Assembly: GCA_934394585.1 (NCBI GenBank)
Contig: CAKRQU010000007.1
Coordinates: 3,343-67,342, forward strand
DNA: 64,000 nt
Direction of reading: 5' to 3'
Origin: an uncultured Eubacteriales bacterium
GTDB lineage: Bacteria > Bacillota > Clostridia > Oscillospirales > CAG-272
Part shown: positions 6,453 through 60,887 of the stretch, piece by piece
Numbering within the stretch: the first letter of the stretch is position 1
Layout of the letters: each line of letters opens with the position of its first letter
The notes under the pieces: model-generated
Told to the model about the DNA's origin: nothing
Databases searched by the model: none
Seen by the model: only the letters and a program-made list of their open reading frames with translations
Program-made: the position numbers and the translations under genes

Positions 6453-7379
6453 ATGGTTAAATTAAGCAAAAAATTTCCGATAATCGCTGGCATTGCGGGC
6501 GTTTTGCTTTTCTTTATAGTGCAGATCGTTACGTCACTCGCGGTTTACGGAATAAAAAAGCCGGAGTATCTTTCCACGCTCATAATAGATCTCGCCTGCA
6601 CTGTGCTGGGAGTGGTGCTGATACTTGTCTGCGGGCTGGGCGATATTTTCAAAAATCATCGTGAAAGCTTTTTGCGCGGGCTCGGCACGGGCGGATTTTT
6701 TATATTTGTTTCGGCGTCGTCGCTTGTCATTCTGATAAGCAGCGCAGAAAGCCGAACGCCGCTTTCCTCTACGGAAATAGCGGTTTTCGTGCTTGCTATG
6801 GTGGCTATCGGTTTCGCGGAGGAACTTATTTTCCGCGGATTTGTTTCGGAAATAATATTCCGCAAATACGGAAATGATTTCTGCGGAGTGTGGTTTTCGA
6901 CGATTGTTTCGAGCCTGATTTTCGGCGCCGCGCATCTCGTGAATGCGTTTTCCTCGGATTTCGGCGGTGTCGTGATACAGTCGGCAGGCGCTTTTGCCAT
7001 GGGCTTGGGCTTTACGGCGGTTTATTACAGGACGCGTAACGTGTATGTCACGGCGGCGCTGCATGCGTTTATGGATTTTGCGGCGCTTTTTACCACGGGT
7101 GTATTCGGCGACGGAACTATTTCGACCACTGTTTCGTCTTATGACGCCTCAAAGCTGCTGGCAGTGCCGATATATGTGCTTGTCGCCGTCGTATTGCTGC
7201 GCAAACTGAAAATGGCGCGCATACTCGGCAAACCAGGAGATACGCCGCTGACGATGCTGGCAAAGCTTTCGTCTTCGGAAAAGTCGAAAAAGCGCCTGAA
7301 ATGGCTGCTCGTCGGCATTGCGCTCACGGCGATAGCCGTCTATGCTTTTTACATTATAAAAGCAGCGTTGAATTTCTGA
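6453..7379 (+). CDS. CPBP family intramembrane glutamic endopeptidase (CAAX protease-like)
   Basis: Multi-TM protein with the EELIFRGF motif, FGAAHL and a later HAFMDF motif. Confidence 0.85.
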   Translation: MVKLSKKFPIIAGIAGVLLFFIVQIVTSLAVYGIKKPEYLSTLIIDLACTVLGVVLILVCGLGDIFKNHRESFLRGLGTGGFFIFVSASSLVILISSAESRTPLSSTEIAVFVLAMVAIGFAEELIFRGFVSEIIFRKYGNDFCGVWFSTIVSSLIFGAAHLVNAFSSDFGGVVIQSAGAFAMGLGFTAVYYRTRNVYVTAALHAFMDFAALFTTGVFGDGTISTTVSSYDASKLLAVPIYVLVAVVLLRKLKMARILGKPGDTPLTMLAKLSSSEKSKKRLKWLLVGIALTAIAVYAFYIIKAALNF

Positions 7380-7395
7380 TATAGAAAAAAGAAGA

Positions 7396-7425
7396 AGCCA
7401 TCGGGTTTGCCCGACGGCTTTTTTC
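7396..7425 (+). terminator. intrinsic terminator of the CPBP gene
   Basis: GCCATCGGG-TTTG-CCCGACGGC stem-loop followed by TTTTTT. Confidence 0.8.
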
Positions 7426-7578
7426 TCTTGCCCAAAATGTTTCTTTTCCTTACGAAGGAAACGCGGGTGTACTTTTCTGTGAAGAAAAGTACCAAAAGAA
7501 ATGTTCCTCTTTGCCAAGAGGGGGCGGGCGACTGCGGTCGCCCGAGGTACGATCGCGCTTTTTACTGACAAAAAGCGC

Positions 7579-7998
7579 GGCAAAAGTCATCAAAGGAAGG
7601 CTCCTCGCCCTCCTTTGCAAACTACCTCGCACCCCGTCGAGTTAGCCGCGGAAAGCAATGCGCGGCAAGTATGTGCTATATATAGCAAATCTAAAAATCT
7701 CATGTCTATCTCTTATCACATCATCAGCCATACCGCGCGTGCGAACAAAGTATGCCGCAAAAAGCGAGCAGATTCGACGGGGTGGGTGGCTTCCGCCATG
7801 GCTTTTGATACGTTTCCCACTATAGTCAAAACTCCACCCATTGCGAGCATGACTTGATGGACATCAAGTTGGGGCGGCTAAAGCCAAAATCTGCACAGAC
7901 AAAAGTCCGTGTTAAGCGTGGATTTGAACTGCACTTCCGGTTTAGTCTATGGTTGGACTGTCGGGGCAGTATGTTCGCACGAGTCGCCGCGAGGCGAC
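7579..7998 (+). ncRNA. candidate structured ncRNA core, copy A (family unrecognised)
   Basis: Roughly 80-90% identical by eye to the cores at 13711-14131 and 60338-60757. Frame-breaking indels, conserved stems, terminal GTCGCC-GCGA-GGCGAC GNRA hairpin, long-range complementarities. Confidence 0.45.
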
Positions 7999-8165
7999 AA
8001 AGAAAGAGTTTAAAAGAGGAATTGACACATACGCGCAGCGTGTGTGTCGGCGTCGCCGAGACAGGAGTTAATTCTTTTCTCTTTTTGACTTTTGGTACTT
8101 TTCGTCAGTGAAAAGTACACCTTCGTCCCCTCGCGGGGGACAAAGTAACTTTTGTTTCTTTGCCC

Positions 8166-8199
8166 CAAAAAACGAACACGGGCGGCAAGTGCCGCCCGC
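8166..8199 (-). terminator. intrinsic terminator of the fused ABC gene (lies inside repeat copy A)
   Basis: On the - strand, GCGGGCGGCACTTGCCGCCCGT is followed by GTTCGTTTTTT. It is nearly the same hairpin as the surE terminator at 60888-60918. Confidence 0.75.
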
Positions 8200-8211
8200 T
8201 TCCTTTTCTTT

Positions 8212-11200
8212 TTATTCTGTTCTCAATGCCACTACAGGGTCCTTTTTCGCGGCACTGCGCGACGGGATTATTCCCGATATGAGCGTGAGAAGCATGCTGA
8301 TGCATACAAGTATCACCGCTACCTCGGGTGCAAGGAAGGCATTCAGATTGCCTATCCCCGTGAGCGAATGGAGAATGAGATTTATCGGTATGCAGAGCAG
8401 ATATGTGATAAGCACGCCGAACATACCCGAAGTGAAACCGATTATCACCGTTTCGGCATTGAACATGCCGGAAACATTCTTTTTCGATGCGCCTATAGCG
8501 CGCAGGATACCGATTTCCTTTGTCCTTTCCTGTACGGAAATGAGCGTGATAACACCTATCATTATTGATGAAACCACGAGCGAAACAGCGACAAAAGCTA
8601 TCAGCACATAAGTTATGGCATTTATAATCGTTGTGACGGAAGACATCATCAGTCCGACATAATCGGTATATGTTATTTTGCCCGATTCGTCCTTTCCCGC
8701 ATTGTAGGAATCTATGATGCTTTCAAGCGTTTCTTTATCCGCAAAGGAAGCGGCATAGAGATTTACCGTGGCGGGTTCTTCTTTCTCGGCATAACCGAGC
8801 ATGAGCATTACATCGTCATAGCTCATATCGGAAAATTCCGTTACTTCGGAATAATACTCCGCGCATACCGCATCGGAATATCCCGCACATTCCGCATCGA
8901 GAGCCGCGGCGAGCTGTTCCGCGGGAACAGCGGAAAGACTTGCCTTTACCTGCTGTGCGTATTGCTCCTTTACCCGCTCCGATATTATCTCGCGAAAGAG
9001 CGCTTCCAACTTTTCGCTGCCCATTTCATTTATATATTCGCGGATTTCGTCTTCACCCATGCCTGTTTCCGCGCTCATGGCGGAAACAAGACTTTCCGTC
9101 ATCTGCTCTATGGTCATGGCTGACATGGCTTTTTCCGTGGCGTCATTTACAAATTCCGCTGTCGGAATTGATTTTATTTTTATATAAGCCTCCGCTTTTT
9201 CGCTTGCGGAAAGGGAAGCGATATAATTTCTGAATTTCTCGGCTTTCTGCGCTTCGGAAAGCGAAGATGCGCTTTCCGCAAAGGGAAGCCCCGTGAATAT
9301 ATCCGTATTCGGCGAGGCTTTCTGAGCCTTTACCGCATCGGATTCCGCCGTTTTTTCTATGATATATTCGGTGAGCGCGTGCGTATAGCCTATAGAGCCG
9401 GTTATCATCGGCGAAAGCGCATCTTCCTTCGGGCGGATAATGCCTACTACTTTCAGATCCGTTCCGTTATCGTAGAGATAACGCATGCCCGCATCCGTGG
9501 TACTGATATCATTGTAAAGTCCGCTCGTGCCGCTTTTTGCGTATTTCTGAGCGTCGGTCACCATGCGGAAAGTCATGCCGCAAAGCTCTTCGTAAGACCA
9601 TTTGTATGTTTCTACGGGAAGCTCGGTCTTATTTACGGCGGCTTCCATGATTTTATTTATTTCCTCTTCGGATTTCAGCCCGAGAGCATAAAGCGTGATA
9701 TCATCGATTTCGTTGTTTTTGTCCGCCACGAGGACTATCTGATCATAGCTTGCAGGCCATGAGCCGTATACCAGATCATATTGCTTTTCGAGTAGCGGAT
9801 TTATCATTTTGCCGTTGCTTCCGGAGAGCAATTCCTGCCACGTGCCGAAGGACGACGCGGGCGTGAGGGACGAGAATATTCCCGCATCGGACGACGCGGA
9901 TGTGCCTGCGTTCATCATTGCACTGCCGAAATATTTGGCGAGCAGTTTTCTTGTCAGTTCTTCGGAATCGGAACGGATTATTTTGCCGTCCACATTTTCG
10001 GTATAGACATTCAGAGAGAAATTGTATGTGTACTGCACGCCGGAAAGCGCGGCGTAAAGCTCGCTTTCGGGATCCGCCATCTCTTTTTCTATAAACGAGC
10101 GGAAATCGCGCAGATTGTTGTCGCGCTGACCGATATTGCTCATGGCATTTACAAATTCATACATGGACGGTTTCTGATAAATGCCGTCTTTTTCATGCAA
10201 AACGGATGAGGCGGCAGGCGACATGAAAGTTTTCATCAGATCGCCGAAATCGGTATGCTTTGCCTCTATCGTGAGGGGATAGGAGGAAAGCGTTTCCTCC
10301 TGCACAGCATTTATATAGCTTGTCATGCCTTGTGATACGGCGCATACGAGCGCTATTCCTATTATGCCGATGCTGCCCGCAAATGATGTGAGCACGGTTC
10401 TGCCTTTTTTGGTGAACAGATTTTTGAGCGAAAGCATGAAAGCCGTGGAAAAAGACATGGACGGCTTTTTCTTTTGCTTTTTGCCCTTTGCGCTCTGAAT
10501 ATCCGCGCTGTCCTTTTCGTGCTCGGCAACGGTTTCCGCCTCGGAAAGCGGTTTTGTATCTCCGATGATTTCGCCGTCGAGCATGCGGATTATGCGCGAG
10601 GAATATTTTTCGGCAAGCTCGGGATTGTGAGTTACCATTATTATAAGGCGGCTCTCGGAAATTTTTTTCAGGATTTCCATCACCTGTATGCTCGTTTCCG
10701 TATCGAGCGCGCCCGTAGGCTCGTCGGCGAGGATTATTTCGGGATCGTTTACTAGGGCGCGCGCTATGGCTACGCGCTGCATCTGACCGCCCGACATTTC
10801 CGCGGGCTTTTTGTGAAGCTGATTTCCCAGTCCCACTTCCTCGAGCGCTTTTATCGCGCGGGATTTGCGCTCCGCTTTCGGTATTCCGGAAAGAGCGAGC
10901 GAAAGCTCCACGTTTTGCAGTACGCTCTGATGCGGGATCAGATTATAGCTCTGAAAAACGAAGCCTATGGAATGATTGCGATAGGCGTCCCAGTCGCGAT
11001 CGCGGAAATCCTTTGTTGATCTGCCGTTTATTGTGAGATCGCCCGAGGTATAATGATCGAGCCCGCCTATGATATTCAGCAGGGTGGTTTTTCCGCATCC
11101 TGACGGACCGAGAACCGAAACAAATTCGCTTTTGCGGAAAGCGAGATTTATACCGCGCAGCGCTTTTACCGTCATATCTCCCGCACAGTAATTTTTTTTG

Positions 11201-11220
11201 ATATTTTTGAGTTCGAGCAT
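8212..11220 (-). CDS. fused ABC transporter ATP-binding protein / FtsX-family permease (MacB-like) with a very large extracytoplasmic domain
   Basis: N-terminal Walker A GPSGCGKTT, LSGGQ signature and Walker [11 protein letters not shown]. One TM, ~550 aa of non-membrane region, then a C-terminal FtsX 3-TM bundle. 1002 aa. Confidence 0.9.
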   Translation of the reverse strand: MLELKNIKKNYCAGDMTVKALRGINLAFRKSEFVSVLGPSGCGKTTLLNIIGGLDHYTSGDLTINGRSTKDFRDRDWDAYRNHSIGFVFQSYNLIPHQSVLQNVELSLALSGIPKAERKSRAIKALEEVGLGNQLHKKPAEMSGGQMQRVAIARALVNDPEIILADEPTGALDTETSIQVMEILKKISESRLIIMVTHNPELAEKYSSRIIRMLDGEIIGDTKPLSEAETVAEHEKDSADIQSAKGKKQKKKPSMSFSTAFMLSLKNLFTKKGRTVLTSFAGSIGIIGIALVCAVSQGMTSYINAVQEETLSSYPLTIEAKHTDFGDLMKTFMSPAASSVLHEKDGIYQKPSMYEFVNAMSNIGQRDNNLRDFRSFIEKEMADPESELYAALSGVQYTYNFSLNVYTENVDGKIIRSDSEELTRKLLAKYFGSAMMNAGTSASSDAGIFSSLTPASSFGTWQELLSGSNGKMINPLLEKQYDLVYGSWPASYDQIVLVADKNNEIDDITLYALGLKSEEEINKIMEAAVNKTELPVETYKWSYEELCGMTFRMVTDAQKYAKSGTSGLYNDISTTDAGMRYLYDNGTDLKVVGIIRPKEDALSPMITGSIGYTHALTEYIIEKTAESDAVKAQKASPNTDIFTGLPFAESASSLSEAQKAEKFRNYIASLSASEKAEAYIKIKSIPTAEFVNDATEKAMSAMTIEQMTESLVSAMSAETGMGEDEIREYINEMGSEKLEALFREIISERVKEQYAQQVKASLSAVPAEQLAAALDAECAGYSDAVCAEYYSEVTEFSDMSYDDVMLMLGYAEKEEPATVNLYAASFADKETLESIIDSYNAGKDESGKITYTDYVGLMMSSVTTIINAITYVLIAFVAVSLVVSSIMIGVITLISVQERTKEIGILRAIGASKKNVSGMFNAETVIIGFTSGMFGVLITYLLCIPINLILHSLTGIGNLNAFLAPEVAVILVCISMLLTLISGIIPSRSAAKKDPVVALRTE

Positions 11221-13640: not shown

Positions 13641-14442
13641 ATTTTTGCGGGAGGGTGGGTACTTTGTCCCCTATGGGGAAGCGATCGCGCTTTTGAGTGA
13701 CCAAAAGCGCGGCAAAAGTCATCAAAGGAAGGCTCCTCGCCCTCCTTTGCAAACTACCTCGCACCCCGTCGAGTTAGCCGCGGGAAGTAATGCGCGGCAA
13801 GTATGTGCTACATATAGCAAAACGAAAAAGCTTTTGTCTATCTCTCCGCGTATCATCAGCCATATCGCGCGTGCGAACAAAGTATCCCGCAAAAAGCGAG
13901 CAGATTCGACTGGGGTGGGTGGCTCCACGCCGAAAGTTTAGCTACACTTCTCACTGTAGGCTAAACTCCGACTGCGCGAGCATGGCTTGATGGACATCGA
14001 AACGGAGCAACTATAGTTCTGATTTGAGCAGGCAAAAGTCCGTGTTAAGCGTGGGTTTGAACCGCGCTTCCGGTTTAGTCTACGATGGGACTGTCGGGGC
14101 AGTATGTTCGCACGAGTCGCCGTGAGGCGACAGAAGGAGATGAAAAGAGGAATTGACACATACGCGCAGCGTGTGTGTCGGCGTCGCCGAGACAGGAGTT
14201 GCCTTCCTCTTTTTGACTTTTGGTATACTCCGTCTCGGCGACGCCGTTCAGAGGTGGCTCCGCCACCCTGAACCCTCCTCTTGGTCACGCAAAAGTACAC
14301 CTTCGTCCCCTCGCGGGGGACAAAGTAACTTTTTGATACTTTTTTACAAAAAAGTATGCCTGCCGCCACTCCCCGCAGTGGAGATTCTTTTCCCGCTTTT
14401 CTGCGGGAAGAAAAGCACACCCTCACGCAGGGACAAAAAATC
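13641..14442 (+). repeat. composite non-coding repeat element, copy B; ends approximate
   Basis: Same core and flank modules as copies A and C. Adds a perfect 15-bp stem (14179-14193 / 14232-14246) and a GGTGGC-TCC-GCCACC module. Confidence 0.85.
13711..14131 (+). ncRNA. candidate structured ncRNA core, copy B
   Basis: Aligns end to end with 7579-7998. The terminal hairpin loop is GTGA (still GNRA). The variable domain is replaced by the 8-bp hairpin AGTTTAGC/GCTAAACT (13935-13967). Confidence 0.45.
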
Positions 14443-58802: not shown

Positions 58803-60131
58803 ATGAAAAGATTAATAACTCTTGTTCTTGCACTTGTTCTTTGCCTGTCCGTGCTTGTAGCCTGCGGAAACGAACCCGCCGACACAACTTCAAAGCTCGA
58901 TCTTGCAAAAGAATATCTTTTTACAATGTATAAAAACTCTTCCGAGAAAGTTCTCAGAGATTTTAACCGCGTAAACAAGCTCAATATCGACGGTCAGTCT
59001 TTTGATGTGGAATGGACCGTGGAAATCACAGCCGGCGCCGCAGACAGCGTTAAAGTAGTTGCGGGCGATGGCAATACAGTAACAATAGACGTTACCGAAA
59101 ATCCCGAAGAAGAAATAAAATTCAATCTCGTCGGCACTCTCAAAGACGGCGACAAGACTGAAAAAGTAAGCTTTTCTCACTATGTTCCCGCAGTGGAAAA
59201 GGCAGGCGGCATAGAGCAGGTTAAGGAAGTTAAGGCAGATACCGCTTACAAATTCGGTCTGAAGCAGGGCAATCTTGAAAAAGATCTGTATTTCACAGGC
59301 GAAATGTCCGGCAATTACCTTGCCACCACAGATGATATAACAAAGGCTGTAAGCATATTTGCGGAAGAAGTTGAAGGCGGCTATCGTCTGTACTTCACAA
59401 AGGACGGCGCAAAGACTTATATCGATATCTATGAATACAAAGAGGGCAAAGCAGGCATCCGCCTCACGGCAGAGCCCACAGCAGTATTCACATGGAATAC
59501 AGAACTGAACCTCTTCACGGCAAATGTTATCGGTTCCGACTACTATCTCGGCACATATAATACCTACAATACGATCAGCGCAAGCGCTACGACGTATATC
59601 ACAGGAGACAATGCTTCCAAGATAGGTGTTTCTCAGTTCCCCGCATATCTTTTCACAGTGAAGCTCACAAATACAACTGTAAAAGAGCCTGCAGCAGATA
59701 CAGCTTACAAATTCATGCTCACACAGGGCAATCTTGAAAAAGATCTGTATTTCACAGGTGAAATGTCCGGAAATTATCTTGCTACATCCGAAGATGTGGC
59801 AGCAGCTGTCGATGTATACCTCGAAACAGTTGAAGGCGGCTACCGTCTGTACTTCACAAAGGAAGATGTAAAGACTTATGTCGACATTTATGAATACAAA
59901 GAGGGCAAAGCAGGCATCCGTATCACAGCAGAACCCACAGCAGTATTCACATGGAATGCAGAACTCGGCATTCTCACGGCAAATGTTATCGGTTCCGATT
60001 ACTACCTCGGCACATACAATACCTACAATACGATCAGCGCAAGCTCTACGACGTATATAACTGGCGACAATGCTTCCAAAATAGGCATTTCTCAGTTCCC
60101 CGCATATCTTGTTACCGTTGGTGTAAACTGA
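58803..60131 (+). CDS. lipoprotein with a tandemly duplicated ~141-aa domain, unknown function
   Basis: Lipobox LVAC-GNE. aa 145-285 and 298-438 are near-identical. Confidence 0.8.
   Translation: MKRLITLVLALVLCLSVLVACGNEPADTTSKLDLAKEYLFTMYKNSSEKVLRDFNRVNKLNIDGQSFDVEWTVEITAGAADSVKVVAGDGNTVTIDVTENPEEEIKFNLVGTLKDGDKTEKVSFSHYVPAVEKAGGIEQVKEVKADTAYKFGLKQGNLEKDLYFTGEMSGNYLATTDDITKAVSIFAEEVEGGYRLYFTKDGAKTYIDIYEYKEGKAGIRLTAEPTAVFTWNTELNLFTANVIGSDYYLGTYNTYNTISASATTYITGDNASKIGVSQFPAYLFTVKLTNTTVKEPAADTAYKFMLTQGNLEKDLYFTGEMSGNYLATSEDVAAAVDVYLETVEGGYRLYFTKEDVKTYVDIYEYKEGKAGIRITAEPTAVFTWNAELGILTANVIGSDYYLGTYNTYNTISASSTTYITGDNASKIGISQFPAYLVTVGVN
59235..60116 (+). repeat. in-frame tandem duplication (period 459 nt) inside the lipoprotein gene
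   Basis: 59235-59657 and 59694-60116 align without gaps at high identity. Confidence 0.9.
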
Positions 60132-60180: not shown

Positions 60181-60337
60181 GCGTATTGGAGTGCAGTTTT
60201 TTCGTTCCCTTCGAGGGGACGGAGGGGTATACTTTTTGCAAAAAAGTATCAAAAAAAGAAGTTACTTTCTCTACCGAGAAACGAGGTCGCGCTTTTCACT
60301 GACGAAGAGGAGGGCTCAAGGTGGCAGAGCCACTTCT

Positions 60338-60757
60338 GTCGCCTCGCGGCGACTCGTGCGAACATACTGCCACGACAGTCCGACCATAGATTAAACCGGA
60401 AGCGCGGTTCAGACCCCCCACTTAACACGGACTTTTGCCTGTTCAGACTTAGGCTTTAGCCGCCCCGTTTCGATGTTCATCAAGCCATGCTCGCTCCGTC
60501 GGAGTTTAGTCTATAGTGGGAAGTATATCAAAAGCCACGGCAGGAGCCAATCCACCCCGTCGAATCTGCTCGCTTTTTGCGGCATACTATGTTCGCACGC
60601 GCGGTATGGCTGATGATGCGCGGAGAGATAGACAAGGGCCTTTTGATTTGCTATATATAGCACTCACTTGCCGCGCATTACTTTTTGCGGCTAACTCGAC
60701 GGGGTGCGAGGTAGTTTGCAATGGAGGGCGAGGAGCCTTCCTTTGATGACTTTTGCC
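60338..60757 (-). ncRNA. candidate structured ncRNA core, copy C
   Basis: 420 nt. The reverse complement is collinear with 7579-7998. Terminal hairpin GTCGCC-GCGA-GGCGAC. It lacks the ~115-nt X module found 3' of cores A and B. Confidence 0.45.
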
Positions 60758-60887
60758 GCGCTTTTTGTCAGTAAAAAGCGCGACCCCGTCCACGGGCGAA
60801 CGCAGTCGCCCGCCCCTCTCTTGGTAAAGAGAAACTTCTTTTTGGTACTTTTCGTCAGTGAAAAGTACACCTTCGTCCCCACAGGGA

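Follow-up and report, generated by a model that had tools for sequence, protein, structure and literature searches.

The stretch 7999-8206 is the right flank, and the right end, of one copy (copy A) of a repeat that encodes no protein, measures 0.6-1.1 kb and occupies more than 100 intergenic gaps in one gut bacterial genome. We read this repeat, with a probability of roughly 0.6, as an undescribed mosaic of the MITE/BIME type: a selfish, non-autonomous element whose flanks are its own structured inverted ends. The reading is based on its copy number, its truncated copies, its restriction to one genus with very unequal loads among the species, a species-specific layer, nested inserts, inverted ends, enrichment at the 3' ends of genes, and turnover between strains.

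The window (the whole stretch of 64,000 nucleotides that was analyzed) belongs to a 90%-complete metagenome bin of 1.59 Mb in 43 contigs (G000), and the genus of the repeat is the gut Candidatus Apopatosoma (Acutalibacteraceae). BLAST of the core against this genome gave 141 matches, 101 of them longer than 300 nt; there are at least 101 near-full cores in 1.59 Mb, with partial and truncated copies also present. The repeat zones measure 588-1103 nt and sum to at least 4.2% of the genome. Pairwise identity between cores falls in a narrow, star-like range of 83.6-89.8% (median 86.6%), and 35 of the 86 contig ends stop inside a core. Three cores lie in the window (Table 1), copy A in an 832-nt gap (7380-8211) between two convergent genes. 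We also noted a 14-nt perfect palindrome in core A, TGCTATATATAGCA (7676-7689), that resembles an extended -10 box on either strand; it is not kept in the sister species, where the sequence is CGGCAAAGGGC. Separately, an ORF at 58803-60131 (a 442-aa protein with no Pfam match) contains a ~459-nt tandem duplication at 59235-60118, with 82-89% identity, which is a repeated protein domain and has no relation to the repeat element.

Table 1. Positions of neighboring genes, cores, end modules and inserts in the window.
Feature	Position	Strand	Remarks
Rce1-like membrane protease gene	6453-7379	+	Left neighbor of copy A
Terminator-like hairpin of the Rce1-like gene	7395-7420	both	Outside the repeat; common to filled and short alleles
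Outer variable-stem hairpin TTTCCTT-ACG-AAGGAAA	7438-7463		Variant at the P-type position
Outer-layer GTAC hairpin, left type (GGTGTAC..GTACC), GGTGTACTTTTC..GAAAAGTACC	7466-7493	+	No GTCA linker after it
E hairpin CCTCTT-TGCC-AAGAGG	7506-7521		
G hairpin CGGGCGAC-TGCG-GTCGCCCG	7525-7544		GC-rich, specific to G000; the module GGGCGGGCGAC..GTCGCCCG of the original prediction lies at 7522-7544
Core copy A	7550-8000 (451 nt)	+	First ~250 nt conserved across the genus
Left terminal hairpin, GCGC form, loop ACTGAC	7553-7580	+	Contains predicted module CGCGCTTTTT-ACTGAC-AAAAAGCGCG (7554-7579)
Left linker AAAAGTCA	7582-7589	+	Its GTCA complements TGAC in the terminal-hairpin loop
Inner hairpin hp2	7591-7617	+	Stem covaries across species; terminator-like on the minus strand
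S hairpin, AAAAGAGGAA..TTCCTCTTTT type	8004-8093	+	Mirror of hp2; loop widened here by the X insert
X insert	8023-8072	+	~50 nt: two small hairpins and GGCGTCGCCGAGAC
Right linker TGACTTTT	8086-8093	+	Mirror of 7582-7589
Right terminal GTAC hairpin, right type (GGTAC..GTACACC), GGTACTTTTC..GAAAAGTACACC, loop GTCAGT	8094-8121	+	
P hairpin GTCCCC-TCGC-GGGGGAC	8125-8141		Outer position; stem differs between copies
Conserved outer motif AAAGTAACTTTT	8142-8153	+	Orthology of filled and short alleles resumes here
T hairpin CGGGCGGC-AAGT-GCCGCCCG	8178-8199		A and T tracts alongside; part of the repeated G/T family
ABC/FtsX transporter gene	8212-11220	-	Right neighbor of copy A
Core copy B	13682-14132	+	In the window
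W insert	14226-14281	+	~56 nt, GGTGGC..GCCACC and GTCTCGGCGACGCC; splits the right terminal hairpin of copy B
Hairpin GATACTTTTTT..AAAAAAGTAT	14335-14357		In copy B; also in copy C
Core copy C	about 60337-60783	-	In the window

To map the modules, 88 copies were aligned together with their flanks. Every hairpin listed in the original prediction was present, with coordinates correct to within 1 nt (8094-8121 where 8093-8122 had been given), and module order and presence do differ among the 88 copies. The modules had been proposed to be freely reusable. They are mostly fixed layers of one long inverted terminal repeat of ~110 nt around a core of ~450 nt, and only two of them, X and W, are optional. 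Read from the inside out, each end starts with an inner hairpin (hp2 at the left end, S at the right end), followed by a linker (AAAAGTCA or TGACTTTT, respectively), the terminal hairpin, ACCCCCGT, an outer hairpin with a variable stem, and AAGTAACTTT, beyond which extra hairpins are added in a lineage-specific manner. From the outside in, the left end runs AAAGTTACTTT, a variable-stem hairpin (or the GC-rich G hairpin), ACGGGGGT, the terminal hairpin (CTTTT-loop-AAAAG), the linker GCAAAAGTCAT and hp2. The right end, from the inside out, is its mirror: the S hairpin, ATGACTTTTG, the terminal hairpin, ACCCCCGT, the variable-stem P hairpin and AAAGTAACTTT. Terminal inverted repeats of the kind that define MITEs are present, with hairpin-GCAAAAGTCAT-hp2 mirroring S-ATGACTTTTG-hairpin, and the outer layers mirror each other as well (ACGGGGGT with ACCCCCGT, and AAAGTTACTTT with AAAGTAACTTT). 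The flanks fold more stably than dinucleotide shuffles, with z-scores of -5.2 for 7999-8125, -4.7 for 8086-8212, -3.0 for 7425-7560 and -5.0 for 7550-7625; no shuffle folded as well as any of these four pieces.

The GTAC hairpins at the two ends of copy A had been predicted to form a terminal inverted repeat. Those at 7466-7493 and 8094-8121 are indeed inverted copies of one another and differ in their loops alone, but the positional partner of 8094-8121 is a different hairpin, at 7553-7580. This follows from the finding that the GTAC and GCGC hairpins (the latter written CGCGC in the original prediction) are one family with a common inner stem and common loops, and that some copies carry the GTAC form at the core start; the step from GTAC/GTAC to GCGC/GCGC is compensated in two base pairs. 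An additional outer layer, not the positional partner, is what the hairpin at 7466-7493 represents; there are 39 such outer hairpins without a GTCA linker in G000. One core-start hairpin in this genome joins a 5' arm of the GTAC form to a 3' arm of the GCGC form (GTGTACTTTTCACTGACGAAAAGCGCGGG); this chimera has the appearance of an intermediate in recombination or conversion between the two stem forms. At the P position at least ten stems recur (TCCCC/GGGGA, TTCTCCT/AGGAGAA, TCCTT/AAGGA and others). A best-stem search found a mean perfect stem of 4.6 bp within a copy as against 3.5 bp in chimeras made between copies, which gives modest support for pairing. A count of G-T versus A-C mismatches in the flank hairpins, as a test of which strand folds, was discarded, since features fixed in the family, and the mirror-image ends, dominated the outcome.

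X and W are nested inserts and the sole exceptions to the fixed-layer behavior. The S hairpin loop comes in a short and a long form, the long one being the form that contains the 50-nt X. There are 53 copies of X in G000, 44 of them at this S-loop position; in sister species X is found at other positions within the element. A lone X was seen at the 3' end of a gene before a terminator (G000:C5:2480-2700), with a partial duplicate of its first hairpin adjoining, so X is able to exist without the large element. W, whose ~56 nt include the GGTGGC hairpin, splits the terminal hairpin just past the loop and does so at mirrored positions: binned by position, 7 copies fall at the left terminal hairpin and 11 in the main bin at the right one, with a few more in the adjoining positional bins. 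The GGTGGC..GCCACC hairpin is present in copies B and C, and X and W have the motif GGCGTCGCCGAGAC in common. The mosaic comes from X, W and the GC-rich hairpin specific to G000, set on fixed layers.

The hairpins are so numerous, and so closely tied to the cores, that they are extremely unlikely to be ordinary, unrelated intrinsic terminators of the neighboring genes. In G000 there are 154 GTAC hairpins (143 within 400 nt of a core; reversed-pattern control, 1), 43 GTCCC hairpins (37), 82 CGCGCTTTT hairpins (73), 78 GGGCGAC hairpins (64) and 35 GGTGGC hairpins (29), although just 8% of the genome lies within 400 nt of a core. In an unbiased count of all perfect hairpins whose stem reached 8 bp or more, 649 of 1217 were within 500 nt of a core, a zone of 9% of the genome, and each recurrent stem family is 85-95% core-linked (at 400-500 nt). 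The GC-rich G/T hairpin, CGGGCGRC..GYCGCCCG, occurs 114 times in G000 (reversed-pattern control, 0) and 0-3 times per sister-species genome. The original prediction had suggested a genome-wide copy-number check, and this excess (GTAC 154 versus 1, CGGGCGRC 114 versus 0), taken with the linkage to cores, speaks against unrelated terminators. It had also likened the modular composition to that of BOX or BIME/ERIC sequences. Since the modules, X and W excepted, are almost never found away from cores, independent spread of each module in the manner of BOX or REP is unsupported, and the hairpin families of G000 do not show the pattern of short palindromes dispersed alone or in pairs that marks REP or BIME families.

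Some of the hairpins do look like terminators. A GC-rich stem followed by a T tract was found on both strands at 8178-8199 and at 7395-7420, so that copy A adjoins terminator-like hairpins, as had been predicted. The T hairpin at 8178-8199 is a predicted bidirectional terminator that may serve the ABC/FtsX gene, as judged from its sequence. The GTAC hairpin is not among the terminator-like sites, and of the GTCCCC (P) hairpin just the minus strand (8145-8121) is terminator-like, its tail being weak. hp2 on the minus strand and S on the plus strand are each followed by TGACTTTTG and have the look of outward terminators. We then asked where the copies sit with respect to genes. For the 86 copies with both neighboring genes called, the gene pairs were 46 convergent, 33 tandem and 7 divergent, compared with a background of 241, 779 and 235, and about one in five convergent gaps holds a copy. 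In tandem contexts 21 copies had the orientation of the genes and 12 the opposite one, which is no strong bias. The terminator-like scores of 7395-7420 and 8178-8199 on both strands, and the location of most elements at gene 3' ends, are what one would expect of unrelated terminators. However, the same stems recur 35-154 times clustered around cores, they are absent from the element-free sister species, and most flank hairpins have no T tract directly after the stem.

Next, we considered the distribution of the repeat. The core and the GTAC hairpin were found in 5 of 6 species genomes of the genus and in 0 of 35 other genomes of the family and order. GTAC hairpin counts in the six genus genomes are 154, 49, 69, 42, 15 and 0; the hairpin is present exactly in the five genomes that hold the core, and G004 has neither. 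The core motif was also detected in at least 120 human-gut metagenome contigs from many samples, and the architecture recurs in four other species, whose cores do not share a conserved 3' half. No relative was found in phage, plasmid or IMG/VR collections, where eight IMG/VR pattern matches were chance hits without the stem. In the window only tRNAs passed the Rfam gathering score; within 7380-8215 the best scores were at most 21 bits, far under the thresholds, and permissive thresholds returned nothing for the element. Among the papers searched, the genus is mentioned only in a metagenome catalogue (preprint and published versions), and keywords for a comparable repeat brought up nothing beyond general or unrelated work on bacterial repeats.

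The loop of the terminal hairpin complements the neighboring linker, and the complementarity comes in two classes. In loci from other species, 75 combine a TGAC loop with a GTCA linker and 20 combine a TGTCC loop with a GGACA linker; crossed combinations were not seen there, and one locus is intermediate (TGTCC loop, GGTCA linker). As the two classes are subfamilies, these counts represent few independent changes. Across species hp2 has five distinct stems, all fully complementary. Judged from the sequences, the loop-linker pairing fits an H-type pseudoknot in a single-stranded nucleic acid, with an A-rich connecting strand beside a U-A stem. The complementarity would fit a split inverted-repeat binding site for a protein equally well.

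Such features raise the question of whether the repeat is a multi-copy gene for a functional RNA, with the core as the structured RNA and the flank hairpins as processing sites, protective ends, and outward terminators or insulators against convergent transcription. The covarying stems and invariant single-stranded motifs across species, the H-type-pseudoknot-like pairing kept in two classes, and the resemblance of hp2 (minus) and S (plus), each followed by TGACTTTTG, to outward terminators are all in line with an RNA gene. We nevertheless find it doubtful. More than 100 diverged and truncated copies are atypical of RNA genes, and the mirror-image ends mean that a single transcript would have a G-T wobble at one end and an A-C mismatch at the other. 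No sigma-70-like promoter was found, the 3' half is unconserved across species, and one species of the genus lacks the element. Covariation does not separate the readings, because a mobile element that needs its fold would covary too and templated repair can keep palindromes perfect. A further proposal, which we likewise think improbable, is that the terminal hairpin, the loop-complementary linker and the ~250-nt 5' domain with its invariant motifs would together be the working nucleic-acid partner of an unrecognized mobilization system. This partner could be a folded ssDNA or an RNA (guide, substrate or ribozyme), and the enzyme could be one outside the known transposase and recombinase families, or a host enzyme.

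To see how the family differs between strains, we compared the three window loci with contigs from other samples whose flanking DNA is ~98% identical, and core-less alleles were found at all three. At locus A the filled gap is 832 nt and the short one 190 nt, with a third allele that is a core-less array of ~330 nt; at locus B the filled and short alleles are 915 and 336 nt, and at locus C 829 and 158-159 nt. The short allele at locus A still has a hairpin resembling E, a GTAC hairpin of the right type, a variant of P, and the T hairpin. That at locus B retains a GCGC hairpin with a short loop, hairpins E and G, a variant of P and a T hairpin, and its junction GGGTCGCGC/AAAAATACACACC (the solidus marks the join) fuses the outer arms of the two terminal hairpins. 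The short allele at locus C retains T-like and P-like hairpins and the G-type linker GTGGACGGG. The alleles of locus A become orthologous again at AAGTAACTTTT, within element sequence, and just inside this point the hairpin loop and P stem differ far beyond the 2% background. The third allele of locus A (L066:7745-8090) combines one left-type GTAC arm with a hairpin resembling W and two GTAC hairpins of the right type; the terminator that comes next is unlike that of the window.

The original prediction had proposed to look for empty sites and target-site duplications. Strains are polymorphic at all three loci, but no clean empty site was found there, since all short alleles keep element-derived hairpins, and a pattern scan of locus A for a module-free junction returned nothing. 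No target-site duplication could be defined at the three loci, where short direct repeats are masked by the palindromic flanks. Turnover of the family between strains is clear; we saw it as replacement and loss, with no documented new insertion. The predicted non-autonomous mobile unit is therefore borne out as a high-copy, non-coding, inverted-repeat-bounded unit, while its mobility, given that no clean empty site, target-site duplication or mover came to light, is something we infer.

Cores diverge by a median of 13% and strains by ~2%, so most copies predate the separation of the strains, whose differences could consist of loss and conversion only. The family might then be a relic of one past expansion that no longer moves, with differences arising from arm-to-arm deletions and gene conversion. 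The narrow, star-like core identity (83.6-89.8%, against ~2% strain divergence) suits a relic, as do the element-derived modules in all three short alleles, the resumption of orthology inside the element at AAGTAACTTT, the single chimeric GTAC/GCGC hairpin and the failure to find a mover gene. Against it, short and filled alleles have different module sets at one site and locus A has three alleles, for which simple deletion is insufficient. Sister species also have widely different copy numbers, and the G/T layer belongs to G000 specifically, implying that spreading went on after the species had split; W, in addition, occupies either end independently. On balance we consider a relic rather unlikely.

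A second, independent (ENA) assembly of the same strain was compared with the window. Over 6.9 kb the two are identical except for 39 mismatches, all in core A, and about 35 of these cluster in 170 nt of its second half (window 7810-7980 versus L039:4180-4350). Either the interior of the repeat is chimeric there, or the heterogeneity is real. A Logan contig of a different sample ends ~100 nt into the left flank of copy A. The mismatches, together with the 35 contig ends that stop in the repeat, could suggest that the mosaic flanks are chimeras assembled from a repeat-rich metagenome bin. We regard such an artefact as very unlikely, because the copy A flanks are identical in the ENA assembly, four other species share the architecture, as do at least 120 metagenome contigs, and the modules are shorter than assembly k-mers.

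To search for a mover, we ran six-frame, whole-genome Pfam searches on the six genomes of the genus. The absence of transposase, integrase and reverse transcriptase genes, noted for the window, holds across the whole of G000 for the seven Pfam families searched, none of which had a match. Y1_Tnp (PF01797, RAYT/TnpA) is absent from the element holders G000, G001 and G003 and present in the element-free G004. The TnpB zinc ribbon (PF07282), RVT_1 (PF00078), rve and DDE_Tnp_1 have no match in G000, and the IS110 DEDD domain (PF01548) is absent from all six genus genomes. Phage_integrase (PF00589) has no match in G000, not even Xer (XerC/D); the five sister genomes have 2-11 matches each. None of the seven families tracks the element across the genus, and the suggested search for a transposase with matching ends (Y1/HUH, IS200/IS605 or IS110) found none in G000. 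Two large serine recombinases are encoded in G000 outside the window, and they were rejected as movers since no element ends lie nearby. The only multi-copy protein genes in G000 are type IV pilin-like.

Nor did we find an autonomous copy in 2.9 Mb of related loci, and no long end-to-end pair encloses a transposase of a parent element. In 42 of 52 cases a left end was followed by the next right end at 500-600 nt, the peak of the distance distribution. Two long end-to-end pairs were rejected as autonomous copies, as they enclose ordinary genes (G5/M23 peptidase, DUF11, rhamnosidase) between inverted copies, and a 776-aa ORF that seemed to start inside the element turned out to be MnmG with a spurious upstream read-through. 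An ORF-less class C group II intron, of the type that inserts after terminators, was dismissed: there was no intron-domain match even at E up to 10, and no reverse transcriptase. An IS200/IS605 PATE would be expected to have a Y1 or TnpB partner and asymmetric ends; we found no such combination, the ends here being inverted repeats, and no HEARO or IS605-orfB Rfam match for the element. Anchors at 30 kb and 43 kb of the window recovered few other strains and no extra insertion. As G000 is a 90%-complete metagenome bin, a plasmid- or phage-borne mover could be missing from it.

If the repeat is indeed a selfish, non-autonomous element, an enzyme supplied in trans would recognize its structured ends, the best candidate site being the terminal hairpin with its linker. 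The element would accumulate at gene 3' ends, and the small inserts X and W would land within its hairpins. With more than 100 copies available, ectopic recombination or gene conversion among them, and deletions from one repeated hairpin arm to another, would reshuffle the flanks, and the same events would remove cores and leave core-less hairpin arrays behind. The GC-rich G/T hairpin, with its A and T tracts, might double as a bidirectional terminator for the neighboring genes.

Of the known repeat families, the enterobacterial BIME/REP/REPIN group resembles this one: its members are intergenic and mosaic, built from short palindromic hairpins whose orientation alternates, and they are enriched at the 3' ends of genes, differ between strains and have covarying stems; some act as terminators or mRNA stabilizers. 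Here, in contrast, the hairpins layer a structured core of ~450 nt and almost never occur without it. REPINs are mobilized by RAYT, a Y1 HUH transposase, whereas G000, G001 and G003 have no RAYT/Y1 and no GTAG/CGTC-type tag was seen. In Neisseria, NIMEs consist of RS units bounded by dRS3 repeats, and both NIMEs and Correia elements are high-copy, non-coding and intergenic, with inverted ends, mosaic arrays and effects on neighboring transcription; we know of no cognate transposase for either. Our repeat is likewise a high-copy non-coding intergenic mosaic with inverted ends, but it has no sequence relation to them. Correia elements are ~100-150 bp with a TA duplication, while the units here are 0.6-1.1 kb with no detectable duplication and three hairpins per inverted repeat. 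Pneumococcal BOX (boxA-boxB-boxC) and SPRITE/RUP sequences are modular, hairpin-forming and intergenic, with variable module presence, and the mover of BOX is, to our knowledge, not known. Our repeat is also modular, hairpin-forming and intergenic, but BOX consists of 45-60-nt tandem modules without a large core, and here X and W alone are optional and the rest is fixed. The bcr1 element of the Bacillus cereus group is a structured MITE of ~155 bp with a TTTAT target duplication (PMC3184786). It too is non-autonomous, inverted-repeat-bounded, structured and perhaps transcribed; the repeat described here has three to six times its size, and we found neither a duplication nor a parent IS for it. 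IS200/IS605 PATEs with omega-RNA are similar as non-coding derivatives with subterminal hairpins and a structured RNA-like part, yet their ends are not inverted repeats, and G000 has neither TnpA (Y1) nor TnpB.

The family breaks most of the G000 assembly. In practice, it accounts for broken contigs, and for repeat interiors that may be chimeric, in metagenome bins of this genus, and it is a source of closely spaced markers by which strains can be typed. Covariation of loop and linker is a concrete structural feature that can be tested, and if the element did work through a nucleic-acid partner, it would represent a new class of non-autonomous mobile element. The GC-rich hairpin specific to G000 appears to supply the terminators of many genes, and would then be selfish DNA co-opted for gene ends. 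Altogether, a 1.6-Mb gut bacterium gives at least 4% of its genome to one non-coding repeat family, and if that family is mobile without a known transposase, this would point to an unrecognized form of DNA movement in common human-gut Clostridia.
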